Source: Parcubacteria group bacterium
GTDB taxonomy: Bacteria; Patescibacteriota; Minisyncoccia; Moranbacterales; UBA2206
Direction: 5' to 3'
Assembly: GCA_041675165.1 (NCBI GenBank)
Contig: JBAYUI010000001.1
Span: 6,901-70,900, forward strand
Length of the DNA: 64,000 nt
This document shows, piece after piece, positions 214 to 37,113 of the stretch. Numbering within the stretch: the first letter of the stretch is position 1; the number at the start of each line of letters is the position of its first letter. Both the position numbers and the translations under genes were made by a program. Under the pieces are notes generated by a model. That model had not been told where the DNA came from. It worked only from the letters and a program-made list of their open reading frames with translations, and did not search any database.

Positions 214-217
214 AGGT

Positions 218-1651: not shown

Positions 1652-1680
1652 ATGATGCGAATCTTATGCAAATACGCGAA

Positions 1681-2331: not shown

Positions 2332-2377
2332 AAAGTTAAGTTAAAAGTTAATAAAGTTAGAAAGTTTGTAAAGTTTA

Positions 2378-2866: not shown

Positions 2867-2964
2867 GCTGTCATTATTTGGTTGGGTAATATTTTTTTTC
2901 ATGCGGTTCTATATACATTATACTCCGAAAGGATGAGTTTAGATAATTTTTTTCAAATAAGAAA

Positions 2965-3768
2965 TCATTTTTCCCAAGTGGTGGGCAGATCATATTTGCC
3001 TTCCAGGTTTTTCCAAGTCAGCTCCACTATTTCTTTTATAGCTAGGGCAAACTTGGGAGATTCGATGATAAGCGTTTCGACGCTTTCAATGAGGCAAATG
3101 CGCACAAATTGATTGTCGCAAGATTCGATGGAAACTTTGGCGCTATAGATTTCCGGCGGCAAAAATTTGGCTTGGATGGATTTCAGTCCATCACCAAAGA
3201 ATTTTTCAAAGGGTTTCAATTGAGGTGTGTCGACAGTTATGCCGCGAACACGCGTGTTGTGAGCTTCTTTGTATTCATTCCATTCCAGGAATACTTGCGT
3301 GACAGCCGGAGAAGCATCTTCGTTGGAGGTGAAAAATCCAACAATTTCTTTTCCATATAAATCTTTCTGTCTATATTTGTAGGCTTGGCGCAAGCCTTCA
3401 ACGCCTTCGAAATACAGGATACTGGGTTTGTTAGTAGTGTTCTTTTGATAGGAGCGTAACTCGGGCAAGATTTTTTTAGCGGCCGAAAGGCGATCTTCTT
3501 GCTCCTCAATGAACGTATCTGGAGTTTTGGCGATGTATAGCTTCTTTTCTTCTCCTGGGATATGCACGATAAGACCTTTTTTGACCAGTTCCTCGGCGAT
3601 AATATAGGCAGTAGGGCGCTTGATGCCGGATTTGATGGCAATTTGATAGGGAGTGGCAGATCCAAGCTGAAGCAGGGCCAAATAGACCAGAACTTCTTTT
3701 TCGGACAAGCCTAAATTTTTTAGCGGTTCAATGAGATGGTTCATAGGAAGAGGAAAGTGGTTATACAT
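2965..3768 (-). CDS. TrmB-family transcriptional regulator (paralog 1)
   Basis: N-terminal wHTH region LGLSEKEVLVYLALLQLGSATPYQIAIKSGIKRPTAYIIAEELVKKGLI is typical of TrmB-like regulators, with a C-terminal effector-type domain. It is divergent from the small-ORF cassette locus. Confidence 0.65.
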   Translation of the reverse strand: MYNHFPLPMNHLIEPLKNLGLSEKEVLVYLALLQLGSATPYQIAIKSGIKRPTAYIIAEELVKKGLIVHIPGEEKKLYIAKTPDTFIEEQEDRLSAAKKILPELRSYQKNTTNKPSILYFEGVEGLRQAYKYRQKDLYGKEIVGFFTSNEDASPAVTQVFLEWNEYKEAHNTRVRGITVDTPQLKPFEKFFGDGLKSIQAKFLPPEIYSAKVSIESCDNQFVRICLIESVETLIIESPKFALAIKEIVELTWKNLEGKYDLPTTWEK

Positions 3769-13145: not shown

Positions 13146-16100
13146 CTAGATATCCGTCACTCGTTCCACTTCTTCCAAGCTCGTCTCGCCTTCCAAGACG
13201 CGCAATACACCGTCTTGGGCCATGGTGAGCATGCCGAGGGAGATGGCTTTTTCTTCCAGTTCGCTCGTGATAGCGCCGCGAGTGATGAGATCTTGGATTT
13301 CGCGAGGCAGACAGAAGACTTCGCTGACCGTCATCCGGCCTTTGTAGCCGATATGATTGCAAATTTCACAACCCTTGGGCTTGTAGATGAATTCAATTTT
13401 TTCCGGCAAGTCAACTCCGGCTTTCGGGGATATGCTTTTCAATGCTTGCTCCAGTTTAATTTTTTCTTCTGCAGTCGGTGTCACTTTTTCTTTGCAATCG
13501 CACAGGCGTCGCACTAGTCGTTGCGCGATGAAAGCGTTGACGGAAGTGGCGATGTCTGAAGAGGCAACACCCATATTTTCCATTCTGGCCACGGCTCCCG
13601 CGGCATTATTAGTGTGGATGGTGGACAAGACCAAATGTCCCGTCAGTGCGGCTTGCACCGCCACTTTGGCCGTTTCATCATCGCGGATTTCCCCGATCAT
13701 CATAATGTCCGGATTTTGACGCAGCAGTTGGCGAAGGGCTGTGGCGAAAGTGTAGCCGCCCGTGTCATTGACGGGAGTTTGCAGGATGCCGGGGATCTGA
13801 TATTCGATCGGATCTTCCACGGTGATAATCTTGATCTCCGGCTTGTTCAATCTTTCCAAGATGCTGTAGAGCGTGGTGGTTTTGCCGCTGCCGGTCGGGC
13901 CGGTGTTCAAAATGACACCATTGGGCTTTTCAATTTCGCGCAGGATCTTTTCCAGATTCTGGCGGCGGATGCCGAGTTTTTCCAGATCATACTCCAAAGA
14001 AGATTTGAAAAGGAGTCGCATCACGACAGTTTCTCCATAGCCTCCGAGGATGATGGAAACACGCACATCGATCGACTTTTCCGCAATTTCAGAAATAGCA
14101 TCGTCGAATTTTATGGTGAAGCGGCTGTCGATCACGCCTTGGCGGACTTCGGTCTTGACGCCGGAAAGATCTTTGATCATTCCGAGGAGCGCCGGGTATT
14201 CATTAAGAGGCAATGAAACGACATTTTGCAATATGCCGTCGATGCGGAACCTGATCTTGACGCTATCCGCTTCCGGTTCGATATGGATATCTCCGACGCC
14301 CAGCATTGCGGCGGCTGAGACAATGAGACCGTTCAATTCGGTCGTCTTGGCCGACCTTAAGATCTCTTCCAATTTCTTGAAGTCCCTGATGTCATCTTTT
14401 ATCTTTTGGAAGGAATTTTTCCTGATGATGATCATCCGGCCCAGAGTTTGCGCCATCAATTTTTCATAAATATTTTCCAAAAATTCTCCTTGTCCCGTAA
14501 CATGCTTCACTTCATCAATGGAAGTTATGCCCGCTACGGCTTTCAAAATGCCGTCTTGCAGCATCGTAATCATCCCTGACTCAAGGGAGGCCACTGCCAA
14601 TTCTGTTTCGCCGGCCATATCCAATATCAATTTTTCAATCTCGTCGTGGATGGTGAGGACTTCAAAAATACCGATGCGCCCCTTATAGCCGATGCCGTTG
14701 CATTTAGCACAGCCTTTCGGTCGATAGAGAACGTCTATTTTTTTCGGAATATCCACTTTGGCTTTGGGAGAAATTATGGACAAGACTTTTTTGATCGATT
14801 CGATCGATTCTTCTGCGGGAACGTAGGCCTCTTTGCACTCGCAAAGTTTGCGCACTAAGCGCTGTCCGATAATGGCATTGACGGAGGGGGAGATCAAAGT
14901 TGGCTTTATGCCGAGCTCGATCAGTCGCGGAACGGCTCCCATTGCGTTATTAGTGTGAAGAGAAGAAAGCACCAGATGTCCTGTAAGAGCTGAATTTACG
15001 GCGATATCGGCCGTTTCATCATCACGGATCTCTCCCACCAAAATGATGTCCGGATCTTGACGCACAATGGCTCTGAGTCCATTGGCGAAAGTGTAACCTT
15101 TGGATTTTTCTATCTGTGTCTGGGAAATTCCTATAAGTTCATATTCGATCGGATCTTCGATGGTGATGATCTTTTTATTGGGCGTGTTCAATTTGTTTAT
15201 GATGGCATAGAGCGTGGTGGTTTTTCCGCTGCCTGTCGGACCGGTGTTTAAAATCATGCCATTAGGAGAATCTATCTGTTTTTGAACGGTCTCGTAAGCC
15301 AATCCTTGCAAGCCAAGATCCTCAACGTTTACGCAAATGGAGTCCGGATCCAATAGTCTCATAACGATCGATTCCCCGAAATTTCCAGGAATGACAGAAA
15401 CCCGCAAATTGATCTTTTTTGTCGCTAGATTGATTTCAAACGTGCCATCTTGGGCAATGGCCCGTAGGTTGATCTTCATTCCTGACATAATTTTTATCCG
15501 AGAGAGGATGCCGGTGAAAACTTTGAGCGGCAGAAAAGCAACATCTTGCAATACGCCATCAATACGATAACGCAAGCGGATCTCTTTGTCCTGCGGCTCG
15601 ATGTGGACGTCTGAAGCGCCGAGCTTGTAGGCACCGGCCAGCATAATATCGAGAATTTTTGTAACGGGCAGTTCGGTGATGCGGTTCTTGAGGGTCAAAA
15701 GGTCCTTCATCTCCTTTTCGAATTCTCGCAGGTCTTCATCGCTCATATTCAGGCTCATCTTATCCAAAGCATCCACGAAAACGACCTGTTTGTATTTATC
15801 CCAGATACGTTTCATATTGGTCTTTGAAATCACAAAGAGCTTGATCTTCCAGCCTTGATCATTTTCCAATTTTTTCAAAAATTCACCCATGTCCGCGCGC
15901 GTCGGATCGGTGGCGGCGATGGTCGCCACTTTGCCCTTGTAGTGGATGAGCGCGATGCCCAATTTCCGAGAGTCGTCTTCGCTCAGGAGCCTGACATCAT
16001 CCTTGCTTATCGGAATGAGATTGGTGTCAGCATAAGGCAAGCCCAGTCCGGAGGCGTAGGCTGAGGCGATCTCTTCTTCTTCTCTTTCTCGGAAAGCAGT

Positions 16101-16175
16101 GATAACTTTTTTCGTCCGAGTTTCTTTCTTAAGCTGTTCTCTGTCCGGATTCTTATTCGGAATAACTTTAAGCAT
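13146..16175 (-). CDS. Tandem-fused double PilB/GspE-family secretion ATPase (type IV pilus/T2SS assembly ATPase, two complete ATPase modules in one 1009-aa chain)
   Basis: Two full copies of the catalytic core in one ORF. Walker A GPTGSGKTTTLY appears twice; Asp box IIT(V/I)EDPIEY twice; His box LTGHLVLS(T/S)(I/L)HTNNA twice. A tetracysteine motif follows each module, and there is an N-terminal T2SSE_N-like domain. Confidence 0.8.
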   Translation of the reverse strand: MLKVIPNKNPDREQLKKETRTKKVITAFREREEEEIASAYASGLGLPYADTNLIPISKDDVRLLSEDDSRKLGIALIHYKGKVATIAATDPTRADMGEFLKKLENDQGWKIKLFVISKTNMKRIWDKYKQVVFVDALDKMSLNMSDEDLREFEKEMKDLLTLKNRITELPVTKILDIMLAGAYKLGASDVHIEPQDKEIRLRYRIDGVLQDVAFLPLKVFTGILSRIKIMSGMKINLRAIAQDGTFEINLATKKINLRVSVIPGNFGESIVMRLLDPDSICVNVEDLGLQGLAYETVQKQIDSPNGMILNTGPTGSGKTTTLYAIINKLNTPNKKIITIEDPIEYELIGISQTQIEKSKGYTFANGLRAIVRQDPDIILVGEIRDDETADIAVNSALTGHLVLSSLHTNNAMGAVPRLIELGIKPTLISPSVNAIIGQRLVRKLCECKEAYVPAEESIESIKKVLSIISPKAKVDIPKKIDVLYRPKGCAKCNGIGYKGRIGIFEVLTIHDEIEKLILDMAGETELAVASLESGMITMLQDGILKAVAGITSIDEVKHVTGQGEFLENIYEKLMAQTLGRMIIIRKNSFQKIKDDIRDFKKLEEILRSAKTTELNGLIVSAAAMLGVGDIHIEPEADSVKIRFRIDGILQNVVSLPLNEYPALLGMIKDLSGVKTEVRQGVIDSRFTIKFDDAISEIAEKSIDVRVSIILGGYGETVVMRLLFKSSLEYDLEKLGIRRQNLEKILREIEKPNGVILNTGPTGSGKTTTLYSILERLNKPEIKIITVEDPIEYQIPGILQTPVNDTGGYTFATALRQLLRQNPDIMMIGEIRDDETAKVAVQAALTGHLVLSTIHTNNAAGAVARMENMGVASSDIATSVNAFIAQRLVRRLCDCKEKVTPTAEEKIKLEQALKSISPKAGVDLPEKIEFIYKPKGCEICNHIGYKGRMTVSEVFCLPREIQDLITRGAITSELEEKAISLGMLTMAQDGVLRVLEGETSLEEVERVTDI

Positions 16176-19256: not shown

Positions 19257-20282
19257 ATGATGAATTTTTTGCGCGGATTTTATTGTGAAAAAAAGCTTTG
19301 GTATGCAGCAGCCTTGATATTGGCGGCTGTTTTGTTTTTTAGCGGATTTTATGCGGGGAAAAGGCAGATGCAAAAAAATGACCAAAATGATGGTCAACTG
19401 CAAGATAAGGAAATCCGTCAGACGGGGTATAAATTTATCAGTCCTCTTTTGGAATGTGAAATCGGGGGATATCCTTTGTTGAAAAATTCAGAGCTGAAAA
19501 TAAAGGAAGCTGTTCAGGGCAGAATAATCGACAAGAATCCTGATGATTTCATCTCTTTGTATTTCAGGGATCTCAATAATGGCCCTTCTTTTGGAATAAG
19601 CGAACAGGAAAGTTTTTCTCCTGCCAGCCTTTTAAAAGTGCCCTTGATGATGGCGTATTATAAATATGCTGAAAATGAGCCTCAAATCCTAGATCGGAGC
19701 GTCAATTACGCGGGGTCTCCCCAGCAATTCCAACAAGCGATTGTTCCGGGAAAACATATTGAGATCGGGAAAAACTATACCATAGAAGAATTGATTGAGG
19801 CGATGATAAAATATAGCGACAACGAAGCCACTAATCTGCTTTTCCAGAACATCAGCCAGGACAAACTAAAAGTAGTTTTTGATGATCTGGGCATAGCTAT
19901 GCCGGATGTTTATGACCCGAACAATGCTATGCCTGTAAAAGACTATGCTTCTTTCTTCCGCATACTCTATAATGCCTCTTATTTGGATCGGGATATGTCA
20001 GAGCGCGCACTCGATCTTCTTTCGACCGTGGAATATAAGGACGGGCTTATCGCGGGCGTGCCCCCCGACGTGGCTATTTCTCATAAATTTGGAGAAAGAG
20101 AGTTGACAGACAAAAAAGGAGGAATAATAAATCAATTGCACGATTGTGGCATTGTCTATTATCCGGAGCATCCATATTTGCTCTGCATTATGACAAAAGG
20201 AAAAAACATCAATAATCTCTCAAGGAGCATTTCGAGCATTTCTAAAATAGTCTACGAAGAGGTCTCTTCAAGAAATAGATGA
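19257..20282 (+). CDS. Class A beta-lactamase-fold serine hydrolase (PenP-like), N-terminal membrane anchor
   Basis: SxxK (SLLK) and SDN (YSDNEATN) motifs are present. The KTG position is degenerate (HKFG), so probably not a canonical lactamase. Confidence 0.55.
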   Translation: MMNFLRGFYCEKKLWYAAALILAAVLFFSGFYAGKRQMQKNDQNDGQLQDKEIRQTGYKFISPLLECEIGGYPLLKNSELKIKEAVQGRIIDKNPDDFISLYFRDLNNGPSFGISEQESFSPASLLKVPLMMAYYKYAENEPQILDRSVNYAGSPQQFQQAIVPGKHIEIGKNYTIEELIEAMIKYSDNEATNLLFQNISQDKLKVVFDDLGIAMPDVYDPNNAMPVKDYASFFRILYNASYLDRDMSERALDLLSTVEYKDGLIAGVPPDVAISHKFGERELTDKKGGIINQLHDCGIVYYPEHPYLLCIMTKGKNINNLSRSISSISKIVYEEVSSRNR

Positions 20283-20625
20283 CCCGCTCGCCCTCCATTT
20301 TAAAAAGGGTATCTTTTTGGACCAAATATTGTCCGATTTTTTGTTTGAAAGCAGGCAGTATGGCGGGAGGACGCTTTGACAAGCTGTGGATAACTTATGG
20401 AAAGAATCACAAAAGACGGTCATTCAAGAAAAAAGAGAATTACTTTTTAACATAACGCAAAAGAGGAAATAATAGAAAAAAGATTGAATAAAAAAACGAA
20501 ACAGAATATGCTCGGAATAATAGGGGGGGGATTGAGTTTTTTAGCTTTATAAAAGCCTAAAAAATCAAAAAGGTCGAGAGCTGTCTGAACCACCCTCTTT
20601 TTTGCTTATCAAAAGCAAAATACTG

Positions 20626-20634
20626 TGGTATAAT
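20626..20634 (+). promoter_or_regulatory. Extended -10 element TGGTATAAT upstream of the giant gene
   Basis: Read from the sequence. The identical TGGTATAAT box also precedes ppsA (56518-56531). Confidence 0.35.
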
Positions 20635-20677: not shown

Positions 20678-23600
20678 TTGGTATCTCTTTTCATTTTTAG
20701 AATGCTGCAAAACAAAAAAACAAAAAATAAGGAAAAAGAGGTTGAAAAACCGCTTAAAAAATCAATAAAAAAAGCTCTCATTGGAAAAAAGGGGTATTTT
20801 GCTGTCCAAAGAAGAAGGGGAGTGAAAAAAAATGATATTGCTAAAGCTAAAATAATTGAAAAAATAGAAGAATACGACCCTGAAATACTGAAAACGGTCA
20901 AATCTTGGAATTTTTCGGAAAAAAGAAAGGACGAGTTTTTCATAAGACAGACCCTTGAAGAATATGTTTCACTTGACCATACGGACAAGAAAGACTTGGG
21001 GAAAGCTTATTTTTGGAATTTATTCTTAGGAAAATTTGTTTTATCAATAAAACAAATTTTCAGACAAGTTTTTAAAGCGGGATTTAAGTTTTCTTATAGG
21101 GCAATATCCGTTTTGGCTATTGCTTTTTTGGTGTATGGAATTTCGCCGGCGGCTCTTTGCGCTCCCAAATCGGTCGCAATAACTACAAAGGCTGATTGGG
21201 ATCTGGGTCAGTTTTCCGGAGTGACTACACAGAATTCTGTCGATTCGATCCAGATGGAACCAAGTGGGACTTGGACAGCTCGAACTTGGGCATCACCAGA
21301 GGACACCATAGGCTTCGGGCATAGTTCTGTAATGGTGGGCGATTATCTCTATGTTTTCCGAGGTTATTCCGGAGATACTTTTTGGAGATATGATACTATC
21401 AAAAATACTTGGTCAACAATGGCGGGACTGCCACAACCGGCATTCTATGGGGCAGATATGACATATTTGGCCAGTACGGGAAAGATATATGCAATGTTCG
21501 GAGGCTATTCTCAAAAATTTTATAGCTATGATATAGATTCAAATTCTTGGACAAAACTGACTGATATGTTAGATACGCCATGGACAGGCGCGGCGATGGA
21601 AGGGAACGGAACGAGCATTTTTATTGTCAGGGGAAATGCCAGTACTGATTTTTGGGAATATGACACTGTTTCCAGTAGCTGGATAAATCGACCACCGATT
21701 ACGGCGGCTGTCGGAGCCGGGGCGGATATTGTGAATGGACAGGATGGAAATTTATATCTGGTCAGGGGATCTGGAACTCAAACTTTCTATCGGTATGATA
21801 TCGCTGGTCACAGATGGTACGCGACCGTGGCTCAACTCCCTTCGACTTGTGGCGCGGCGGCAAATGCAGCTTGCACTTTTGGAAACGAACAAAAAGGAGT
21901 CTATCGGAATGGAAAATTGTACTTTATGCGTTCTAATGGTACGCAAGATATGTTGCAATATGACATTTCTGGAAATGCTTGGACGGCTCTAACGACAGAT
22001 ATGACTCCTCAAGCGGTCAATTATGGTTCTTTGACTCTGAATACAAATGATAATTTAATATATGCCTTCAGAGCTAATGGCACGACTGATTTTTGGAAAT
22101 TCGATCCCGATGCGGCATCCGGACAAAAGTGGGTCGGACCAAAACAGGTGCAAACAACCGCAGGCGTCCTTTCTACTGTAGGCACAGGCAGTGATTTGGT
22201 TTGGAATCAGAATTATGGCGGAAATAACTACGTGTACGCTATCCAAGGCAGGGGAACGACGGGATTTTTTGTGTATAATGTAGCGAATAATTCTTGGACG
22301 ACCGGTACGGTACTTCCCATCTCTCCGAATAGTGATATGAAAGGAGCGATCAACCCGGCTAATGGAGCGCTTTATTATCCGCGTTCTGGATCGGCTAATA
22401 TCCTCATTTACAGCGGAGGCACTGCCGGTACTTGGGCCAATATGTCGCCGGCACCACCCATAGCACCGGCCGATGGAGCCAGTGTTGCTTTTCAAGGCAC
22501 CAATCTATATTATCGGCCCGGCAATGGAAGTCAGAATATTTATCGATACAATGGCACAAGTTGGTCAGCGGCAATCCCTATGGCAACTGTAGATAGCGGA
22601 ACGACCACGACTTATTATGCCAATACGGGAGGCAGAATGATTTCGGATGGAACTAATGTTTATGCAACACTGGGAGATGGTGAAACAACATTTTTGAAAT
22701 ATGACGGAAGTGCTTGGTTAACATTGTCCGCCACGCCATTCTCGCAATATTATGGGAGTGATATGACGTATGACAGCGTTAATTCAAAAATATATGCCTT
22801 AGCCGGATTATATAAGAATGAGACTTGGGAATATGACATAGCCACTGATGTTTGGAGAAGGTTGCCGAATAACCAGAAATATACTTTTGATAGGGGACCG
22901 TACAATGGTGCTTCGATCGAATATTCCGGCAATACCTCTTTATACGCAACTACAGGCCAAAGCCTTTCTGATATATGGAGTTATACCGTCTCAGCTACAA
23001 ATTTTCCAACTTCCGGAACTTACACTTATGCCAGTCAAATGATCGACCTCGGGCAAGTTTCCAGTGGTTCGGCATTCACTTTCAATGAGGAAAGGCCGGC
23101 CAATACTTCTACGAAGTACGAGCTGTGTACAAATGCGGACGGTGCGGCCTGTTCTTCTTGGCACAATGTAACGGACGGCGTGATCAGCGACCTAACCATT
23201 GGCAGGTATGTCTGGGTGAAAGTCACCTTATCTACGAGTGATGGGGCCAGCACTCCAACAGTGAATGATTATACCATTTCTTATGCTTCAAGCGATACCG
23301 TTCCTTCTTCGCCTACGACAATAGTGGCTAAATCTCAGCAAGTGGACGGGTCAGATATCGTAGCTGACACGGAATACGCATATGAGCACCCCTATTTTTC
23401 TTGGACAGCCGGAGCGGATAATGGCTCAGGAATAGATGGTTATTATGTCTATTGGGGAAAAAACAGCTCCGCGGATCCGGCAAGTGAAGGAAGTTACCAG
23501 GCAACTGGCCACTATACGGTCAACGAGGCGATGAATTATGATACTAGTCCGGTGCATCCCTACGGCACATATTATTTAATCGTGAAGGCTAAAGATAAGA

Positions 23601-26600
23601 ACGGGTTGGTATCAGACGCTTGGTCAGCTTTTACTTACAAATACAAAGGTGTTTCTCCGTCACAAGTATCGAGTAAAACATTACAAAGCGATTTCAATAA
23701 AGCGGGAGCCGACTTTGATGACGGGAAAATATCATACTCGGCTGTTGATGGATCAATGCGCCTGTCAAACACTTCCGGTTTTTGGAATCAGGCTCGATTA
23801 TCAGCTTCACCCTATTATACGCATATAGGGGGTCAGGCAGTGTTGGGGGGATGTAAGACGACTGGGCAATCCCAATTAAGTGGCAATCATTGCGTTTATA
23901 CATTTCAAGGAAACAATCAATTGGTTTTTATGCGGTATGAGATTGAAACGGATACATGGATAAATTCAACCGCTAATATAGCCGAGATAAAACCAGCCTT
24001 GTCAGCGGTTAATAATGGAGGAACGATGGTGGCTGGTCCGGAGGGTTATCTCTATGCGACCAAGGGTGTCACCACGCCAACTTTTTGGCGCTATGACATT
24101 GCTAACGCGGCATGGACACAAATTGATGATGCACCGAAAAATTTCGATTATGGTTCTGTCTTGACGTATGATGACAGTCGATATATCTATGCTATGCCAG
24201 GAAATGACGATGCGACATATCGATATGACACTTGTAACGGTCAAGATGGAAGTTGCAGTCCGCAATGGACCCAACTAACCAATGCCCAATTCGGGAACCC
24301 CAATACGGTTGACGGACAAAAGACCTACGAAGGAGCGGATGGTATTTATGACGGACGGAACAATATGTATGTGATGCAAGGCAACTATTATCCGTATATG
24401 GCTAAATATTCCATTGCTGACGACGAAGGGCGTGGAGAAGTGCATAATACTTGGACATCTCTTTCGGCCGCGCCCGTCGGTTTCTATAACGGAGGCAGTT
24501 TGTCTTTCGACGGGGATCATACAATCTATGCTTTAGCGGGAAATTCTCGTATGAAGTTTATGAAATATGACACCAACACCGACGCATGGTCATTCCTTCC
24601 GGACGCGCCTGCCACAATTTCATATGGAGCTTCTCTCGTTTTTCATAACGGCTATCTCTATGCCACTCGAGGGGGAACTTATACGACGTTCTATCGTTAT
24701 AATACGATTGATAACACGTGGGAGATTCCCAATCATAATTTTTTCGGCAATACGGATGTGACAGGGGCAGTTTATCTCCCTTATTCCAATGGAGCTTCAA
24801 TGGCGGATGACGGAGGCGGAAATATATATATATATAGAGGCGGATTCGATAATACTTTTGGACGATATAATTCTTCGACCGGTGTTTTTACCACCCTATC
24901 CAAGTTACCGATGGGTGCCGGCAACGGAGCGAATATTGTATATAATGGAACGGAGAATGCTATCTACTATGTTTCCGGCAATACCATAAGAACAAGACGG
25001 ACCGGGACGGATACGCAGAACCCATACTTTTTCAAATATGATATAACCAGTAATACTTGGTCACAAATAACCACCGATCGTCCTTTGGCTCAAATATGGC
25101 TGGGATCGTCAATGACCTATGACGGGTCTCAATATATCTATCTGACCCAGGGCAATGGTACATCCACTTGGTGGAAATATGATACGTTGGGGGCTGCCGG
25201 TTCAAGGTGGAGCGCTATGAGTACGGTGGGGAGTTGTTCGAGCGGTGACGGAAGTAAGATTTTGTATGTAAGTGGAACGATTTTCCGGACGCAAGGCGCA
25301 GGATCGACTACGAATTGTAAATTTTCTATTTCTAATGGAACGTGGTCAACATTGGGAGCCCTTTTCTTTGGTGCTAACTCCGGATCAAGTCTGGTAGATG
25401 GCAAGGACGGTTATATTTATTTGGCTCGCGGCGGCAATACTAATAGTTATTATCGTTATAACATTTCCCAAAGCGCTCCGGGGTCATGGGAAAATCTGAC
25501 CGGAGCCAATATTCCGGCTCAAGTGACTACGGGCGGTTGGGGAGTAAATTCTAACAATAGGAACTGGTTTACGTCCGGCGCGGGCGGAGGAATAACTTTT
25601 CCGGACGGATTGTATAGCTATATCGTCGGATCTAGTACGAATGCGACGGGTTTTATTAAGACCGGTACATATACTTCAGAACCGATTGATCTTACTCAGG
25701 CTTATAAATTTGCCAACTTGAGCGTCAGCTATATCTTGCCGATCAACACTGCGCTTGAAATCCAAACCAGAACTTCATCCAACGGGTCGACTTGGGGAGA
25801 TTGGACGGATGTTTCAGAAGATCATTCTTTGGGCGATTCTCATACTTTTTCCATAAATTCTTCCGTAAATGAATATATTCAGATAAGGATGATTTTCAGC
25901 TCTTCCGATCAAGTCTATTCTCCGCGCGTAGATGATTTTGCCATAAACTATTATCAAGATCTTTTCCCGCCTGACAATCCTACTGGTATTTCTGCTTACG
26001 ATACCAGTGTCAAAACCAATATTCTTTCTGACAATACTTGGCATAACTACACAGCTCCGTATTTCGAATGGCCGGTCGCTAACAGCGCGGGCGGAGCGGT
26101 TGACAATCAGGGCGGATCGGGCATCGCGGGCTATTATGTCTGTTTCGGGAATAATACTGATTGCGTGGATCCTTATGTGGACGGTAGTTTCCAGATGGGC
26201 AATAGTTTTGTCCCTACCGGTATGGTTTCCGGACAGGATTATCATTTGAGAATAAAGGCCGTGGATAATGCCGGTATGTTTTTGGGTACGAGTTTTGATG
26301 CCTTCACGTATCGATTCGATGATGTGGCTCCGACTAATCCCAGTGAGATTACAGCCGATCCGATAGGTTATTCTTCAGCAGACGCGTTTATTTTCACGTG
26401 GTCTAATGATGTCGGTGATGCTAATTCCGGCGTAGCCAAATTCCAATATCGCACAGGCGGAGATGCGGCAGACATATGGTATGATATTTCTGACCCATAT
26501 GCCGTATCGCAATCCGTCGCGCCATATCAGGCTAACAAGAACACTTTCTATTTGCGCGCGGTGGACAATGCCGGCAATGTTTCCGCTCCGATGACGATGG

Positions 26601-28462
26601 ATTATTTCTATTCCGGTGGAGCCGCTTCGCCGCCGCAAAATTTGGTTGTTTCGCCGGACACCGTGGACAATCAGACCAACAGCTTCACTTTCACTTGGGA
26701 CGTGCCTACTTCTTACGCGGGGGATGTGGACAAGTTGACCTATTTCTACTCGGTCAATTATCTGCCCACGCCTTTTAATACCATAGAAACTACAGCCAAA
26801 GCCGCCGGTCCGGGGCCGTTTGCGACCCAGTTCGGGAAAAATACTATGTATGTAGTGGCGATGAACGAAGGCGGCACCAAAACTAATCCAAACGATGTGG
26901 ATTGGGATCATCCAGCCTCGGTGGATTTTTATGCCAAGACGACCGCTCCTGGACCGCCGGTCAATATGCAAGTTTTCGACACTTCCGATCGCGAAGCGGA
27001 GGAATATAGCGTGGCGGTCAAATGGAGCGTGCCGCAAAGTTATGATAGTGGAAACTTTGCCGGCTACACGATCTATCGATCGCTCGATGGAACGAATTTT
27101 GTCGAAGCGGCCACGACGACCGGAACGGCGTATGTGGATACGGAATTGGAAAGCAAAGAATATTATTATTATGTCCGCTCTAGAGATAAGACTAATAATC
27201 TTTCCATCGCAACCTCGACACTTTTTTTGACGCCGACCGGGCGCTATACCACTCCGCCGACCATCGTGTCCAAGCCATCGGTTTCAGTGCAATCATTTGC
27301 AGCTTCTTTCGAGTGGTCGACTAACCGATTGGCCAGTTCTTTCGTCGAGTATGGCACGAAGATGTCATTGGGAAAGACGAACGGACAAGTGGACAGCCTG
27401 ACCGCGCACAAAGTCGATATCAATGGCTTGGAAGCGGCCACTAAATATTATTATCGCGTGAAATTTATCGATCCGGACGGGAATATCGGAACTTCTGAAA
27501 TCGGTAATTTTACCACCAATGATCCGCCGACCATTTCGGACGTTTTGGTAGATGGCATAGGATTGGACAGTGCGACTGTTTCTTGGTCGACCAATATGAG
27601 CGGCACTTGCACTTTAAAATATGGAGAAGGTGGCTTTTCAAATTCTATCGAGGAGTCGGGCAGTGGGACGACGCACATCCAGAAAATCACAGGACTTAAA
27701 AATGCTACGCCCTACGCGTATCAGGTGGATTGTGTAGACGCGGATGATAATACATTTGATAGCGATCAATATACTTTCAATACCCTTGAACAGCCGCGGG
27801 TGGAAAATCTGACCGTGCAGAACAAGGAGAATGTCGATATCCCGACCATCGAGTTGAATTATACGACCACCCATCCGACGACTACCTTGGTCAAATTCAA
27901 GGGTCCGGATGAAACGGCTTATCATAACTATCTATTGTCGGATTACGCGACTGATCATAAAGCGACGATCGAAGCGTTGGATCCGGCCATTGAATATGAA
28001 GTGGTTGCGACGGGCATTGATGAAAACGGAGTGGAGGCGGCCAATATGACGGCCAAGGTGACCACCCTGACCGATAGTCGCCCGCCCGCCATAACAGCTA
28101 ATCGCGCAATCGGACGAGTGATCGGGCTCGGAAAAGATGCTAGGGCTAATTTGTATGTTAAGATAGAAACAGATGAACTCACAAAAGTAAAAGTGCTTTT
28201 CGGCAAAGGAACGATTATGGGCAACTTTGAGCAGAGCACGCCGGAAGATCCTTCCAATACATATCATCTAATCACTATCCCCGTCGATCCGGGACAGGTG
28301 TATAGCTATGTCATTGAAGCGGTGGATATGGCGGACAATAAAACTGTTTCCAATCCGGCCACGGTTGTGGTTGAAGGCGCCAAGCAGAATGCGACCGAAA
28401 TCGTGATAAATACGTTCAGCGATAAGTTTGGTTGGATAACTAAGTTATGGATAAAACAATAG
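20678..28462 (+). CDS. Giant (2594 aa) cell-surface protein: basic N-terminal tail, single TM anchor, multiple Kelch-type beta-propeller repeat blocks, beta-sandwich inserts and several C-terminal fibronectin-III-like domains
   Basis: An uninterrupted 7.8-kb ORF. Dozens of repeats of the form (Y/F)x(F/Y)RGxxxxxF(W/Y)xYDxxxNxW (Kelch/galactose-oxidase type). FN3-like units carry WS(T/A)N...YYYRV motifs. The TM segment AISVLAIAFLVYGISPAALCA is at about residue 140. Confidence 0.8.
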   Translation: MVSLFIFRMLQNKKTKNKEKEVEKPLKKSIKKALIGKKGYFAVQRRRGVKKNDIAKAKIIEKIEEYDPEILKTVKSWNFSEKRKDEFFIRQTLEEYVSLDHTDKKDLGKAYFWNLFLGKFVLSIKQIFRQVFKAGFKFSYRAISVLAIAFLVYGISPAALCAPKSVAITTKADWDLGQFSGVTTQNSVDSIQMEPSGTWTARTWASPEDTIGFGHSSVMVGDYLYVFRGYSGDTFWRYDTIKNTWSTMAGLPQPAFYGADMTYLASTGKIYAMFGGYSQKFYSYDIDSNSWTKLTDMLDTPWTGAAMEGNGTSIFIVRGNASTDFWEYDTVSSSWINRPPITAAVGAGADIVNGQDGNLYLVRGSGTQTFYRYDIAGHRWYATVAQLPSTCGAAANAACTFGNEQKGVYRNGKLYFMRSNGTQDMLQYDISGNAWTALTTDMTPQAVNYGSLTLNTNDNLIYAFRANGTTDFWKFDPDAASGQKWVGPKQVQTTAGVLSTVGTGSDLVWNQNYGGNNYVYAIQGRGTTGFFVYNVANNSWTTGTVLPISPNSDMKGAINPANGALYYPRSGSANILIYSGGTAGTWANMSPAPPIAPADGASVAFQGTNLYYRPGNGSQNIYRYNGTSWSAAIPMATVDSGTTTTYYANTGGRMISDGTNVYATLGDGETTFLKYDGSAWLTLSATPFSQYYGSDMTYDSVNSKIYALAGLYKNETWEYDIATDVWRRLPNNQKYTFDRGPYNGASIEYSGNTSLYATTGQSLSDIWSYTVSATNFPTSGTYTYASQMIDLGQVSSGSAFTFNEERPANTSTKYELCTNADGAACSSWHNVTDGVISDLTIGRYVWVKVTLSTSDGASTPTVNDYTISYASSDTVPSSPTTIVAKSQQVDGSDIVADTEYAYEHPYFSWTAGADNGSGIDGYYVYWGKNSSADPASEGSYQATGHYTVNEAMNYDTSPVHPYGTYYLIVKAKDKNGLVSDAWSAFTYKYKGVSPSQVSSKTLQSDFNKAGADFDDGKISYSAVDGSMRLSNTSGFWNQARLSASPYYTHIGGQAVLGGCKTTGQSQLSGNHCVYTFQGNNQLVFMRYEIETDTWINSTANIAEIKPALSAVNNGGTMVAGPEGYLYATKGVTTPTFWRYDIANAAWTQIDDAPKNFDYGSVLTYDDSRYIYAMPGNDDATYRYDTCNGQDGSCSPQWTQLTNAQFGNPNTVDGQKTYEGADGIYDGRNNMYVMQGNYYPYMAKYSIADDEGRGEVHNTWTSLSAAPVGFYNGGSLSFDGDHTIYALAGNSRMKFMKYDTNTDAWSFLPDAPATISYGASLVFHNGYLYATRGGTYTTFYRYNTIDNTWEIPNHNFFGNTDVTGAVYLPYSNGASMADDGGGNIYIYRGGFDNTFGRYNSSTGVFTTLSKLPMGAGNGANIVYNGTENAIYYVSGNTIRTRRTGTDTQNPYFFKYDITSNTWSQITTDRPLAQIWLGSSMTYDGSQYIYLTQGNGTSTWWKYDTLGAAGSRWSAMSTVGSCSSGDGSKILYVSGTIFRTQGAGSTTNCKFSISNGTWSTLGALFFGANSGSSLVDGKDGYIYLARGGNTNSYYRYNISQSAPGSWENLTGANIPAQVTTGGWGVNSNNRNWFTSGAGGGITFPDGLYSYIVGSSTNATGFIKTGTYTSEPIDLTQAYKFANLSVSYILPINTALEIQTRTSSNGSTWGDWTDVSEDHSLGDSHTFSINSSVNEYIQIRMIFSSSDQVYSPRVDDFAINYYQDLFPPDNPTGISAYDTSVKTNILSDNTWHNYTAPYFEWPVANSAGGAVDNQGGSGIAGYYVCFGNNTDCVDPYVDGSFQMGNSFVPTGMVSGQDYHLRIKAVDNAGMFLGTSFDAFTYRFDDVAPTNPSEITADPIGYSSADAFIFTWSNDVGDANSGVAKFQYRTGGDAADIWYDISDPYAVSQSVAPYQANKNTFYLRAVDNAGNVSAPMTMDYFYSGGAASPPQNLVVSPDTVDNQTNSFTFTWDVPTSYAGDVDKLTYFYSVNYLPTPFNTIETTAKAAGPGPFATQFGKNTMYVVAMNEGGTKTNPNDVDWDHPASVDFYAKTTAPGPPVNMQVFDTSDREAEEYSVAVKWSVPQSYDSGNFAGYTIYRSLDGTNFVEAATTTGTAYVDTELESKEYYYYVRSRDKTNNLSIATSTLFLTPTGRYTTPPTIVSKPSVSVQSFAASFEWSTNRLASSFVEYGTKMSLGKTNGQVDSLTAHKVDINGLEAATKYYYRVKFIDPDGNIGTSEIGNFTTNDPPTISDVLVDGIGLDSATVSWSTNMSGTCTLKYGEGGFSNSIEESGSGTTHIQKITGLKNATPYAYQVDCVDADDNTFDSDQYTFNTLEQPRVENLTVQNKENVDIPTIELNYTTTHPTTTLVKFKGPDETAYHNYLLSDYATDHKATIEALDPAIEYEVVATGIDENGVEAANMTAKVTTLTDSRPPAITANRAIGRVIGLGKDARANLYVKIETDELTKVKVLFGKGTIMGNFEQSTPEDPSNTYHLITIPVDPGQVYSYVIEAVDMADNKTVSNPATVVVEGAKQNATEIVINTFSDKFGWITKLWIKQ

Positions 28463-29295
28463 ATCAAATAGACGAGAAGGAGAAAAGAATATTAAAGATG
28501 AATGAAGCTCCCAGTCAGAGTGCTAAAGGAAAAAAAACTTCCGAGTTTTTTCCTGAGTTTGAACATCATTCTCAAAAAGATATTGTAGTCGGTGTCAAGG
28601 ACATTGAGAAAACTTTTGTCTTGGGCACTAATAAGGTGGATATTTTGAAAGGGGTCAACTTCGAAATAAAAAGAGGGGAATTTGTGATGCTAATGGGTCC
28701 TTCCGGTTGCGGAAAATCGACTTTGCTCCACATCGTTTATGGATTGGAAGCTCCGACCAATGGGACGATCTTTGTTGAAGATGAAGATATCTGGGCGCAC
28801 AGCAAGAATTGGCGAGCTTATTTCCGCAATCAATACATCGGTTTTATCCCGCAACAAGCCTTTTGGATAAAGTCGCTTTCAGTCATTGAAAATGTGGCGG
28901 TGCCGGGATTCATCGGCGGTCGGGGTTATCGCGAATCCATCGAAAGAGCGTATAAGACCTTGGAAATTGTCGGAATGAAAGACTGGGCACATTATCGGCC
29001 GTTTGACTTGTCCGGAGGACAGCAGCAGAAAGTAGCTTTTGCCCGTTCACTCCTTCTTAATCCTAAATTCATCATCGCGGATGAACCGACGGGGAACCTT
29101 GACCAGAAATCCGGCGTACAGCTGATGGACCTCATTAAAGAGTTCAACGAATCATTGAATATCACTGTCCTTATGGTGACGCATAATCCTGATCAGATCA
29201 GTTATGCATCGAGAATAGTCAGGATGGTGGACGGAAAAATATTATCAGACACGACTGATAAAGAACAAATTAATATAATCAAAAATGAAGCTTAA
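28447..29295 (+). CDS. ABC transporter ATP-binding protein (MacB/LolD/FtsE-like)
   Basis: Walker A GPSGCGKSTLL, signature LSGGQQQKVAFARSL, Walker B IIADEPTGNLD. The start overlaps the giant gene by 16 nt. Confidence 0.85.
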   Translation: MDKTIDQIDEKEKRILKMNEAPSQSAKGKKTSEFFPEFEHHSQKDIVVGVKDIEKTFVLGTNKVDILKGVNFEIKRGEFVMLMGPSGCGKSTLLHIVYGLEAPTNGTIFVEDEDIWAHSKNWRAYFRNQYIGFIPQQAFWIKSLSVIENVAVPGFIGGRGYRESIERAYKTLEIVGMKDWAHYRPFDLSGGQQQKVAFARSLLLNPKFIIADEPTGNLDQKSGVQLMDLIKEFNESLNITVLMVTHNPDQISYASRIVRMVDGKILSDTTDKEQINIIKNEA

Positions 29296-30613
29296 CTTTT
29301 TTTTAAGAAAGAAAGATGTTTCCTTGGAAAGCGAAGAGGATTATGAAAAGAAACATCATAAAGCCTCCAATCGGCCGAAGGAAACTTGGAAAGAGAAACA
29401 TACGGGTATCAGTTTTTCGATGATTTCCTATATCAGTTGGAAGAACTTGAAGGTCGGGCGGGCCAGATCCATCCTGACTATCGGTGGGGTGGCTTTAGGC
29501 ATCGGGATAATCACTTTCCTTTTGAGCATCGGATTCGGTATGCAGCAAATGATCGTCTCGGAAGTCACCAAAGATAATCCGATAGATGTCATAGATATAA
29601 ATAATGGCAATCTGGACAATTTCGTTTCTTTGAACGAGGATGTGGTCGGCAAGATAAAAAATATTGACGGAGTGAAAAAGATCGAGAGGCGGGTGAATAC
29701 GGGAGGCAAGATAATCCTAGGCGAATCTCAGACGGATGTGATCATTTATGGAGCGACAGTCGAATATCTGGATATGCTTAGGGTCAAATATCAGGATAAC
29801 GGAGGAAATTTTTCCAACGATGGGGATTCGGCTCTGATTTCAGACAGGCTGGCTAATCTTTTGGGCTTTGGCAATCCATATGAGGCTATCGGCAAAAAAA
29901 TCGTATATAATATCGCGTTGTCCAAGGACGTGAGTTCTAAGTTGGATACGGAGAAAGTGACTGAGAATAATGAAATAACCATCTCTGGTATCGTCAATAA
30001 ATCTGACAATACCTATATATATTTGCCATCCAAAATGTTAGAAGATAAATTCGGAGTAGATAGCGCCCAAGAGGGGAAGGTGGTCGTCTCCGATATGACC
30101 AAATTTGACAATGTGAAACAGCAGCTGGAACAAATGGGTTTCGTGACCAGCAGTATCGCGGAACTCATCGCCGGTATTAACAGTTTTTTCAGCACCGTGC
30201 GGATCTTCCTAGTGATTTTCGGGGTGATCATTATGTCGATTTCAGCGATGGGAATGCTTAATACTTTGAGTGTTTCTCTTTTGCAGCGGACCAAAGAAGT
30301 CGGAATTATGAAAGCTTTGGGCACGAAGCGGTTCGATGTTTTCAAAATGTTCATCTTGGAATCGATCATTATCAGTTTTGTCGGAGGCGTTTTGGGATTT
30401 TTCGGGGGCTATGGATTGGCACTTTTTGTGAATAAACTCTTGATAATTTTGGGCAAGAGGATGGGGACAGACCTAGGCTATTTCGTCTATGTCCCGACCG
30501 GTTTCATCTTGGCCATTGCCGGTTTCGTCCTGTTCCTGGGAATCATTACTGGGGTTATGCCGGCATTTCGCGCGTCCAAGATCCATGCCTTGGAGGCCCT
30601 TCGCTACGAATAG
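29285..30613 (+). CDS. ABC transporter permease, FtsX/MacB family (periplasmic core domain plus FtsX 4-TM domain)
   Basis: N-terminal TM with LKVGRARSILTIGGVALGIGIITFL, a large periplasmic domain, and a C-terminal FtsX-like 3-TM bundle ending in RASKIHALEALRYE. It overlaps the ATPase gene, indicating an operon. Confidence 0.7.
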   Translation: MKLNFFLRKKDVSLESEEDYEKKHHKASNRPKETWKEKHTGISFSMISYISWKNLKVGRARSILTIGGVALGIGIITFLLSIGFGMQQMIVSEVTKDNPIDVIDINNGNLDNFVSLNEDVVGKIKNIDGVKKIERRVNTGGKIILGESQTDVIIYGATVEYLDMLRVKYQDNGGNFSNDGDSALISDRLANLLGFGNPYEAIGKKIVYNIALSKDVSSKLDTEKVTENNEITISGIVNKSDNTYIYLPSKMLEDKFGVDSAQEGKVVVSDMTKFDNVKQQLEQMGFVTSSIAELIAGINSFFSTVRIFLVIFGVIIMSISAMGMLNTLSVSLLQRTKEVGIMKALGTKRFDVFKMFILESIIISFVGGVLGFFGGYGLALFVNKLLIILGKRMGTDLGYFVYVPTGFILAIAGFVLFLGIITGVMPAFRASKIHALEALRYE

Positions 30614-30645: not shown

Positions 30646-31215
30646 ATGTTGTTCTTAAACGGATTTTTTCCAATGACCCATAAATTTTCCTATGCAGATC
30701 TGCCACAGACGGATGCATTTTTTTTGACAGTGGCCATCTTGGCAGTAATCGTCCCGCCATTCCTGATCTTTTTCTTGGCACCTGCCACGCGGCGAATCAA
30801 GAGTTTTTTTTATTGGATGACTATCTCACCGATTGCGAAATTAAGAAGCGTCAGAAAATATGATAATGATAGGTTTGAAGAATATGAGGAAGCAGAAGCT
30901 GAGGTGTTCAAAGCTAACCCGGGAAACTTTTTGACGCTGTACAGCGGATTGAATATGATACTAAGTCTAGTGGCAGAAAAAGCTATGCGGAAAAAGATCG
31001 AAGAAGGCACCAGCCATGAAGAGATTGTCAAGATGTTATTGAAAACGGGAGTTTTAACACCTGTTGGCGCTAAAAAATTAAGGTTCATAAGATGGGTGGA
31101 AGGTGTGGTGGTTTCCGGCGGAACTGGACTGATTTCGCGAAAGACGATGGAGCTGGCCATCGCGGTACTCTGGAAGACGCAAAAGGAGCTTAATAATTGG
31201 ATTTCCAATAATTAA
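30646..31215 (+). CDS. Hypothetical protein with an N-terminal TM segment
   Basis: 189-aa ORF with no recognisable motifs. Confidence 0.35.
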   Translation: MLFLNGFFPMTHKFSYADLPQTDAFFLTVAILAVIVPPFLIFFLAPATRRIKSFFYWMTISPIAKLRSVRKYDNDRFEEYEEAEAEVFKANPGNFLTLYSGLNMILSLVAEKAMRKKIEEGTSHEEIVKMLLKTGVLTPVGAKKLRFIRWVEGVVVSGGTGLISRKTMELAIAVLWKTQKELNNWISNN

Positions 31216-36312: not shown

Positions 36313-37113
36313 GTGTACGATAGGCATATGTTAGCCAGTAACACTCTCAAAAAATTGGGTCTAAATGAGAAAGAAACGCGAGTCTATCTGGCGCTACTTC
36401 GGCATGGACAAGCTAAACCGGCGGAACTGGCGAAACTCACTAAACTTAATCGGGCAACGCTTTATCATACTGCCAAAAGCTTGGTTTCATCCGGAATTAT
36501 TGCTGAAGACTTGAGTGGCAAGGCTTTGCAATATGTGATTTTGCCGATTGATAATATGAAAAATATTCTAGAATCAGACAAGAGAGAATTAAAAGAAAAA
36601 GAGAAGCTGGTCAAGCAGGCAGTGGGAGAATTGCAGATGATCAGTTCAGAAAAATCATATCCGGTGCCCAAAATTAGATTCATAGAAGAAAATGATTTGG
36701 AAAAATTCTTGTTCGATAATTTAGTGAAATGGCAAAAAGAGGTTATTGCATCTGATGGACACTGGTGGGGCTTTCAGGATCATACTTTTGTGGAAAATTA
36801 TCCTGCTTGGATTGAGAAGAGTTGGAAAACTAAAGAAAGCCAACGTGGAAACTATTCGCCGCAAATATTTACTAATGATTCAAAGACCGAGCGGAAATTG
36901 AAAGGAAAATATCAGCCGAAGCGGCAGGTGAAATTTTTAGCGGATACTAATTTCACGGCTACAACCTGGGTTTGTGGGGATTATCTAGTAATGATTTATA
37001 CTCGCCAGGTCCCATATTATATTATTGAAATTCACGATGAGATGATGGCGCTCAATATGCGCGAGATTTTTAGGAGGTTGTGGAGAAATCCGGTTGGACA
37101 AAAAGTTGATTAG
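36313..37113 (+). CDS. TrmB-family transcriptional regulator (paralog 3)
   Basis: LGLNEKETRVYLALLRHGQAKPAELAKLTKLNRATLYHTAKSLVSSGII wHTH, similar to paralogs 1 and 2. Confidence 0.6.
   Translation: MYDRHMLASNTLKKLGLNEKETRVYLALLRHGQAKPAELAKLTKLNRATLYHTAKSLVSSGIIAEDLSGKALQYVILPIDNMKNILESDKRELKEKEKLVKQAVGELQMISSEKSYPVPKIRFIEENDLEKFLFDNLVKWQKEVIASDGHWWGFQDHTFVENYPAWIEKSWKTKESQRGNYSPQIFTNDSKTERKLKGKYQPKRQVKFLADTNFTATTWVCGDYLVMIYTRQVPYYIIEIHDEMMALNMREIFRRLWRNPVGQKVD

Follow-up and report, generated by a model that had tools for sequence, protein, structure and literature searches.

The locus described here raises the question of why the gene for a giant repetitive surface protein should overlap that of an ATP-binding cassette (ABC) transporter subunit, and whether the two products work together. 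It lies in a stretch of 64,000 nucleotides (nt), called the window below, from a Parcubacteria group bacterium of the Patescibacteria (Candidate Phyla Radiation, CPR), and comprises a giant gene with a product of 2,586 amino acids, followed by genes for an ABC ATPase and a permease. Patescibacteria account for a large share of bacterial diversity, are mostly ultrasmall episymbionts and are almost wholly uncultured; this gene triad bears on the open problem of how their envelope and their interface with hosts function. At 7.8 kb, the giant gene alone accounts for nearly 1% of a genome of some 1 Mb. A first-pass annotation, made from the window's letters, had proposed a dedicated partnership between the giant protein and the MacB/FtsX-type pair encoded after it, and the survey of related loci reported here bears the proposal out: the triad recurs in every related locus that could be assessed (>70).

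Conservation of the gene triad

All three genes lie on the forward (+) strand, as do all window coordinates below unless marked (−). The giant gene sits in an uninterrupted open reading frame (ORF), the longest within the window, which in its maximal form runs from a TTG at 20678 to 28462 and would encode 2,594 amino acids, the length first reported. The ORF is real and intact, but that length is superseded: the product starting from the ATG at 20702 (20702–28462, 2,586 amino acids) is the better one because it is identical to the deposited hypothetical protein P0001 of a 'Parcubacteria group bacterium' metagenome-assembled genome (MAG). The ATPase gene (28447–29295, 282 amino acids) overlaps the giant-gene stop by 16 nt and the permease gene (29285–30613, 442 amino acids) overlaps the ATPase gene by 11 nt, in agreement with the stop/start overlaps first described. 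If translation of the ATPase began instead at 28499, a gap of 36 nt would follow the giant gene and there would be no overlap; homologues of the ATPase in two other loci (L010 and L022) align from residues 2–3 of the window protein, which favours the overlapping upstream start at 28447. A consensus scan found no intrinsic-terminator-like site near the giant/ATPase or the ATPase/permease junction, consistent with the unbroken operon that had been envisaged, and the three genes may be translationally coupled, to judge from their sequence. The same scan gave a sigma-70-like promoter candidate 5′ of the giant gene (20606–20634, TTATCA-17-TATAAT with an upstream TG), a consensus match and not evidence of function, and a terminator-like hairpin (20317–20336), likewise a consensus match, that closes the gene upstream.

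The giant protein belongs to a large family. Searching protein sequences gave more than 120 full-length relatives (2,370–2,670 amino acids), with 34–80% identity over 93–100% coverage; the orthologous family as a whole spans about 2,370–2,930 amino acids, and its members can be aligned over their full length at 29–80% identity. All close homologues come from Moranbacteria/Parcubacteria MAGs, in line with a window genome of that type. A scan of one genome per GTDB species with the pattern GSG(I/V)xGY(Y/W)V(Y/C), a motif of the protein discussed below, found relatives in 271 genomes. We retrieved 79 loci from Moranbacteria, other Parcubacteria, Microgenomates (Woese-, Shapiro-, Levy-, Roizman- and Collierbacteria) and WS6; some of the MAGs concerned carry evidently wrong automatic labels. 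An alignment of 16 sequences from both main clades is collinear throughout, with a mean column identity of 52%, and in an alignment of 67 sequences conservation is uniform over the ectodomain (0.42–0.65). Over the distance between Moranbacteria and Microgenomates the giant protein keeps 33–60% identity and a fixed length, which together imply a function close to core biology. In the deepest relatives (L084 and L085) identity is 29–33% over the first supermodule of the protein. With this supermodule as query, an exhaustive profile-free search gave 165 clusters (50% identity) at E<1e-30, made up of orthologues and of further large proteins with Kelch or sandwich-FN3 modules in common. Conservation from end to end at a fixed length is a better fit to a constrained machine part than to a fast-evolving adhesin. 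The giant protein may be 'adhesin-like', as first described, on the strength of its sequence; it is no idiosyncratic adhesin, and belongs to a strongly conserved orthologous family of fixed length found across deep patescibacterial lineages. We found no description in the literature of this giant family or of its ABC pairing.

The genes next to the giant gene were surveyed by tblastn and ORF calling on all retrieved loci. The giant gene was found in 78 of them, the ATPase gene in 71 and the permease gene in 70, and the loci without ATPase or permease all end at or just past the giant gene. The order giant, ATPase, permease holds in every locus with sufficient downstream DNA (>70), in the gene tables of independent assemblies and in the two deep relatives L084 and L085, and the gaps between the three genes are mostly between −31 and +40 nt. 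When the ORFs within 10 kb of the triad were clustered over 78 loci, no further gene proved universally conserved, and no gene for a membrane-fusion adaptor was conserved with the triad. As a negative control we used one non-orthologous Kelch/TIG giant whose downstream genes were readable: this TIG/PKD/Kelch protein of 4,208 amino acids, from another lineage, has no ABC pair downstream. Pairwise identities are correlated between the giant protein and the permease (r=0.91) and between the giant protein and the ATPase (r=0.87), with a range of 0.87–0.93 over all three proteins. These correlations speak for co-inheritance; they are weak evidence for contact, since vertical inheritance passes on the three genes as a set. 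The evidence that the three genes form a unit is good.

Giant protein and ABC complex

The giant protein was first described as having a basic cytoplasmic tail and one transmembrane (TM) anchor, and in the window this description stands. The N-terminal tail (20702–21088, residues 1 to about 129) is rich in Lys and Arg, with 34 basic (K+R) against 17 acidic (D+E) residues, and after it hydropathy finds a single hydrophobic segment in the whole protein, the TM anchor (21089–21163, residues ~130–154), which ends in PAALCA-PKS. Among relatives the tail varies in length and sequence, its conservation in the 67-sequence alignment being low (0.12–0.21). The anchor ends in ALCAP in the window protein and in ALSAP in relatives, as seen in the N-termini of homologues; because its Cys is not kept among relatives, the site does not count as a lipobox. 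A Pro in position +1 points to an uncleaved signal anchor in the window's clade. A Sec-type N-terminus is found on the giant protein in all clades; the protein thus has its own signal, and the ABC system is not needed for its translocation.

The first-pass annotation had also assigned Kelch blades, beta-sandwich inserts and C-terminal fibronectin type III (FN3) modules to the protein, and domain annotation and structure prediction bore this reading out. Pfam gave matches to Kelch_6 (E 1.4e-27), Kelch_2 (E 5e-19) and Kelch_1 (E 4.5e-15), and further to fn3, Pur_ac_phosph_N (an FN3-like fold) and FN3_DSCAM; a sequence search of the PDB with the giant protein gave no match. An AlphaFold2 model of residues 160–1000, built on an alignment of 17 orthologues (predicted local distance difference test, pLDDT, 84.3; predicted TM-score, pTM, 0.70), has about 12 four-stranded blades, followed by a six-stranded beta-sandwich and an FN3 domain. 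The blades (21269–22981, residues ~190–760), which Pfam, blade motifs, the model and Foldseek all support, form two six-bladed beta-propellers, the head of a first supermodule (A). Single propellers from the model match the six-bladed Kelch domains 5yy8 and 8pju at TM-scores of 0.79–0.80 in Foldseek; Pfam, the AlphaFold2 model and Foldseek together support Kelch-repeat propellers of six blades. The first beta-sandwich (23015–23287, residues ~772–862), predicted to be jelly-roll-like with six long strands (model positions 613–703), has no Pfam family above its threshold. The FN3-like domain that follows (23321–23644, residues ~874–981; Pfam fn3 at 899–968, and AlphaFold2) carries the GSG(I/V)xGY(Y/W)V(Y/C) motif.

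Residues 990–1890 are homologous to residues 160–1000 from end to end (26% identity over 846 amino acids, E 2e-38), which points to an ancient tandem duplication of a supermodule made of two propellers, a sandwich and an FN3 domain. Supermodule B would accordingly repeat the design of A. It has about 12 Kelch blades (23819–25621, residues ~1040–1640) by Kelch_6 matches, blade motifs and homology to A, and then a second beta-sandwich with a second FN3-like domain (25649–26326, residues ~1650–1875), which align with their counterparts in A. The propeller pair that was modelled is the first, and homology to it suggests the second.

The remainder of the protein was credited at first with at least four FN3 modules, a conservative figure: the AlphaFold2 model of residues 1880–2586 (pLDDT 85, pTM 0.38) has seven FN3-like sandwiches in tandem (26339–28381, residues 1880 to ~2560), also supported by Pfam and Foldseek, and then a helix of 21 residues. 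The pTM of 0.38 indicates flexible geometry between the domains. Foldseek likens this predicted fibronectin type III array to those of titin, cytokine receptors and fibronectin and to FN3/immunoglobulin (Ig) arrays. Apart from the terminal helix, both modelled regions are all-beta. The helix itself (ATEIVINTFSDKFGWITKLW; 28391–28453, residues ~2564–2584) is predicted with a pLDDT of 56–65. Its motif xE(I/V)V...FG(W/F)(L/I) occurs in 67 of 67 full-length homologues, and deeper relatives retain a hydrophobic/basic helix at this place, which makes it a candidate docking or interfacial element. Its amphipathicity is moderate, with a hydrophobic moment (muH) of 0.31 against 0.20 for shuffled sequences, and is significant in 15% of sequences. 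We also tried the helix as a strongly amphipathic one that anchors the protein in the plane of the membrane and set that candidate aside, the hydrophobic moment giving it moderate support only. Three features can serve as a practical marker of the family: the GSG(I/V)xGY(Y/W)V(Y/C) motif, the terminal helix with its FG(W/F), and the triad of genes itself.

The two downstream products are indeed the MacB-type ATPase and FtsX-like permease of the first-pass annotation. The ATPase matches PF00005 (ABC_tran, E 1e-32) and resembles LolD, MacB and FtsE; some 45 additional amino acids extend its N-terminus. Among NCBIfam models it scores highest to LolD, DarD, MacB, DevA and FtsE, all far under their curated cutoffs; the best match is LolD (TIGR02211), with 208 bits against a cutoff of 308. 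Simple pattern matching found Walker A, Q-loop and H-loop in 71 of 71 orthologues and Walker B in 70 of 71; in the alignment Walker B reads ADEPTGNLD and the signature LSGGQ, LSSGQ or LSAGQ. With these catalytic motifs conserved, the ATPase is presumably active, and the set (Walker A, Q-loop, signature, Walker B with DEPT, H-loop) is what would be expected of a type VII ABC nucleotide-binding subunit. The permease matches PF12704 (MacB_PCD) over profile positions 1–206 of 207 and PF02687 (FtsX) over 2–119 of 120. Hydropathy places hydrophobic segments at 62–80, 307–325, 355–388 and 407–425, giving a layout of cytoplasmic N-terminus, TM1 (62–80), a MacB-type extracytoplasmic domain (~81–306) and an FtsX domain with TM2–4 (307–425); TM1, a large MacB_PCD domain and a C-terminal FtsX domain with three TM segments would together mark a type VII permease. 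Its nearest solved relative is YtrF of Bacillus subtilis (9o9x, E 2.5e-26), after which come the pneumococcal MacB-like permease (5xu1), MacB, LolC and LolF, and its highest NCBIfam scores are to LolCE, MacB and FtsX, all far under curated cutoffs. The pair is a distinct subfamily of the type VII ABC class.

Clade differences and neighbouring genes

The tail and anchor of the window protein turn out to be clade-specific, which refines the first description: members of the Microgenomates type have an ordinary signal peptide. Small permeases (400–462 amino acids, including that of the window) pair with giant proteins that have a basic tail and a TM segment, and in this clade an Ala-Pro junction is conserved after the TM segment. 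The basic tail (50–301 amino acids) was seen in 28 loci with a small permease, and 16 loci with a large one lack it. Large permeases of 649–865 amino acids are of the Microgenomates/WS6 type (L038 17923–20034, L043 18316–20913 and about 30 others), and their giant proteins have only a short signal peptide, apparently a cleavable one. The large permeases have an insert of 210–380 residues in the MacB extracytoplasmic domain, with conserved motifs W..C...LGYT.R.EG...WG..Y, and an additional N-terminal hydrophobic segment; the insert has no Pfam match, and no similarity between it and the giant protein was found. Such complementarity between anchor and permease size would be expected of a permease that keeps the giant protein attached to the membrane.

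Some further genes accompany the triad in parts of the family. In 18 loci of the Microgenomates type (among them L038, L039, L045, L048, L057, L060, L064, L067, L070, L072–L074, L078 and L079) a TM-anchored rhodanese-domain protein of about 200 amino acids is encoded after the permease gene, often overlapping it; it is absent after the permease in the window's clade. One subclade has an ORF of 130–170 amino acids with a single TM segment between the giant and ATPase genes (L043 17110–17517, L050, L051, L053, L054, L058, L065 and L066); its ectodomain looks FN3-like by eye and has no Pfam match. In the window, a gene for a membrane protein of 189 amino acids (30646–31215, no Pfam match) begins 32 nt 3′ of the permease gene and is probably co-transcribed with the triad; its product is homologous solely to that of a gene in the closest locus (L004), so it is not a conserved part of the system. 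These three were considered as a conserved fourth gene and rejected, none being universal. In the deep relative L084 an ORF of 1,008 amino acids (2–3028) ends 3 nt before the giant gene.

Upstream of the giant gene in the window lies a gene for a membrane-anchored protein (19257–20282) resembling penicillin-binding protein (PBP) A and class A beta-lactamases (PF13354, E 5e-38), with SLLK (SxxK) and SDN motifs and Tll2115 PBP-A as its best PDB match. A PBP-like gene adjoins the operon in about 13 loci of several lineages, including L014 (18270–19319), L085 (1222–2205), L050, L059, L061, L082, L039, L076, L072, L057 and L078; its positions and orientations vary, and in one locus it separates the ATPase gene from the permease gene. 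Such recurrence makes it a candidate for a facultative fourth component with a tie to peptidoglycan. Other window genes are typical of a small CPR genome (TsaE, cyclophilin, PolA, RuvB, Mur ligases, Ddl, FemAB), and there are a PilB-like ATPase, TrmB regulators and a tRNA-Gly; the Mur ligase, Ddl and FemAB genes indicate that the organism makes peptidoglycan.

Farther out, the window encodes a protein of 1,009 amino acids (13146–16175, −) in which an MshEN domain is combined with two stretches of T2SSE (PilB-like) ATPase, so that it resembles a secretion or pilus ATPase fused in tandem; its relatives near the giant gene in other loci have a single such domain and about 592 amino acids. A probable surface protein of 689 amino acids (7802–9871, −) has three lamin-tail domains and a PKD domain. 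An ATP-grasp domain (sugar-transfer associated) is fused to a putative Zn-protease domain (218–2331, −) beside a 7TM_transglut membrane protein, neighbours that we take to be a known pairing of unclear function. TrmB-family regulators (2965–3768, −, and 36313–37113, +; also L001 400–1176 and L002 4034–4783) lie within a few kb of the operon in 11 loci, which may merely be local synteny.

Possible mechanism and known systems

Type VII ABC systems act on or through dedicated extracytoplasmic partners, as in FtsEX-EnvC, LolCDE-LolA, MacAB-TolC and YbbAP-TesA (PMC12646458, PMC7668044). We propose that the three genes specify one conserved envelope machine of the Patescibacteria. The giant protein would be exported by Sec, its signal in the window's clade remaining as an uncleaved anchor behind the basic cytoplasmic tail, and would display outside the cell four six-bladed Kelch propellers, two beta-sandwiches and nine FN3-like spacers. 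The ATPase and permease would form a type VII (MacB/FtsX-fold) complex for which the giant protein is not a transmembrane cargo; instead the complex would hold or engage it outside, and the likeliest points of contact would be the terminal helix and those C-terminal FN3 domains that lie close to the membrane. ATP hydrolysis in the cytoplasm would then move the outer domain of the permease and so alter the giant protein in its conformation or its anchoring; the propeller/sandwich head, as the working end, may recognise a ligand, which could be part of the cell's own wall or sit on a host. Mechanotransmission of this kind has precedents in FtsEX with EnvC, PcsB or RipC and in YbbAP with TesA. 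Since a signal of its own provides for Sec export of the giant protein, and type VII systems act via extracytoplasmic partners, the most likely reading in our view is that the ABC complex is a dedicated mechanotransmitter for the giant protein, and we give this an even chance of being right. A bolder form of it, which we hold to be rather improbable as a whole, is an organelle typical of the CPR lineage and conserved widely in it, in which a type VII ABC motor would mechanically actuate (extend, retract or switch) a propeller/FN3 surface arm of about 2,500 residues, seizing or probing hosts or, with the PBP-like enzyme, breaching or crossing walls. If such an actuated arm were real, no ABC-powered extracellular 'limb' would have been known before it, and the way of life of these episymbionts would gain a conserved molecular handle.

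Several points weigh against mechanotransmission. Vertical inheritance is one, as conserved order and correlated divergence would also fit a looser functional link. The linkage itself is genomic, and it is from there that we infer a physical contact between giant protein and permease, the direction of force or signal, and a ligand. The complementarity between anchor and permease size rests on two or three lineages and has an exception, P0279, with a short signal peptide and a permease of 412 amino acids. The terminal helix is modestly confident in the model and at most moderately amphipathic, and Pfam detected in the giant protein neither a hydrolase domain of the kind found in FtsEX partners nor a coiled coil. 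The partnership is solid; the mechanism and the biological role set out here are what we propose for it.

Other explanations of the triad have to be weighed along with this one. That the adjacency is an inherited gene order without functional link is extremely unlikely in our estimate: all loci belong to one superphylum, in which shared ancestry can preserve order, but the flanks have been wholly reshuffled between lineages around an invariant triad of overlapping or near-touching genes, and pure inherited adjacency is unlikely to leave such a pattern. A functional link of another kind would be extraction in the manner of Lol or YbbAP, with the ABC complex pulling the C-terminal helix or, in the window's clade, the N-terminal anchor from the outer leaflet for release or hand-over to the wall or a surface layer, so that it would serve deployment or maturation and not reversible actuation. 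LolCDE and YbbAP do pull hydrophobic moieties from the membrane (PMC12646458), and the ATPase and permease score best against the LolD and LolCE models, if far under the Lol equivalog cutoffs. A hydrophobic/basic terminal helix to pull on is universally conserved on the giant protein, yet it is no more than moderately amphipathic; giant proteins of the Microgenomates type lose their N-terminal signal and hence need another association with the membrane, whereas the conserved Ala-Pro junction of the window's clade suggests that the N-terminal anchor stays. With no lipobox, the Cys not being conserved, and no LolA-like acceptor gene conserved nearby, we regard extraction as unlikely.

The transporter might instead work as MacB-type exporters ordinarily do, on a small molecule, a peptide or a lipid, with the giant protein using or receiving the product, or being protected by it, and no mechanical coupling. 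Pumps of the MacB family export antibiotics, peptides and glycolipids, and the NCBIfam matches include DevA, bacteriocin and darobactin exporters and MacB. YtrF, the nearest solved relative, belongs to the YtrBCDEF transporter, whose substrate is unknown and which has been tied to cell-wall thickness (PMC8060467). We judge ordinary export to be quite unlikely, however, as genes for biosynthesis or for a precursor are not conserved next to the operon, a membrane-fusion adaptor is lacking, and a shared substrate alone hardly explains the strict one-to-one linkage with a 7.8-kb gene at deep divergence together with the anchor/insert pattern. The giant protein might finally be a surface-layer (S-layer) or wall scaffold, for whose insertion the ABC complex and the PBP-A-like enzyme remodel the wall, in the service of the cell's own envelope or division and not of host contact. 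Control of wall hydrolases by FtsEX-type systems (PMC7668044, PMC10694151), the PBP-A/class A beta-lactamase-like gene adjoining the operon in several lineages and the capacity to make peptidoglycan, read from the window's genes, all lend something to this account. That gene is near only about one-fifth of the loci, though, and the transporter scores too low for the FtsE and FtsX equivalogs. The strong conservation of the giant family would also be unusual among S-layer proteins, which as a rule are poorly conserved, and on balance we consider a scaffold very unlikely.

We return to mechanotransmission and to the systems that the triad most resembles. FtsEX with EnvC, PcsB, CwlO or RipC likewise combines a separate ATPase with a four-TM permease that has a large extracytoplasmic domain, in tightly linked genes, and with a dedicated outside partner; no substrate is moved across the membrane, as we propose for the triad as well. 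The triad differs in its scores (FtsE model TIGR02673 167.6 bits against a cutoff of 264.85; FtsX models 24–38 against 225–255), in a permease domain of the full MacB_PCD type and in its partner, a propeller/FN3 protein of 2,586 amino acids in which Pfam detected no coiled coil and no LytM, CHAP, NlpC/P60 or amidase-activating domain. We therefore rejected FtsEX proper, on both the equivalog scores and the partner domains. YbbAP-TesA and LolCDE-LolA belong to the same ABC class, share the logic of a cognate extracytoplasmic protein and, in LolD and LolCE, give the best profile scores, but the triad has no lipobox and no LolA- or TesA-like partner and its scores are under the cutoffs; a LolCDE with a lipoprotein substrate was rejected on TIGR02211 (208 bits against 308), TIGR02212 (73 against 362) and the Cys that is not conserved. 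Patescibacteria are generally regarded as lacking an outer membrane. MacAB-TolC, Spr0693-0695 and B. subtilis YtrEF have the same permease fold, YtrF being the nearest solved sequence relative. Unlike MacAB-TolC and the Gram-positive MacB-like pumps, the triad has an unfused ATPase, no gene for an adaptor or an outer-membrane channel, and a giant partner gene instead, and a MacAB-TolC-type pump was rejected because no adaptor or channel gene is conserved within 10 kb of the triad in the 78 loci and PRK10535 (MacB) gives 176 and 71 bits against a cutoff of 966.

Type I secretion of adhesins (LapA with LapBCE, and RTX proteins) also places a giant repetitive surface protein beside ABC transporter genes. 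Those systems have an HlyB-type exporter, an adaptor, TolC and a C-terminal signal, in contrast to the N-terminal Sec signal and MacB/FtsX-type ABC proteins of the triad; we rejected a type I adhesin on the ABC class, on the N-terminal signal and on Pfam, which reports no RTX domain. As for the giant protein itself, the best overall Foldseek match of its supermodule is the ectodomain of the Bacteroides hybrid two-component sensor BT4663 (PDB 4a2m), which has tandem beta-propellers and then a membrane-proximal Ig/FN3 domain, and the tandem-propeller ectodomains of ROS1/Sevenless and LRP6, also with membrane-proximal Ig/FN3 domains, are further matches, ROS1 being made of propellers and FN3 'legs'. 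These are matches at the level of fold only (TM-scores 0.38–0.42, about 10% identity), and the propellers concerned are seven-bladed, as we take those of BT4663 to be from published descriptions, or of the YWTD type, whereas those of the giant protein would be six-bladed Kelch propellers; the giant protein also has no kinase or signalling domain. Among giant surface proteins of predators or episymbionts, the Aureispira grappling hook protein GhpA, a fragment of which is among the Foldseek matches of the FN3 array, similarly has very long extracellular beta-sandwich arrays for reaching another cell; it has no sequence relationship to the giant Kelch family, which is far more conserved, and we know of no ABC partner for it. 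Taken together, the system belongs by the features that define the fold to the type VII ABC class and is distinct from FtsEX, LolCDE and MacAB. It provides a specific candidate, open to testing, for an energised machine on the surface of Patescibacteria, and its giant partner, unlike any described for type VII systems, adds a very different kind to the short list of EnvC, LolA, MacA-TolC and TesA.

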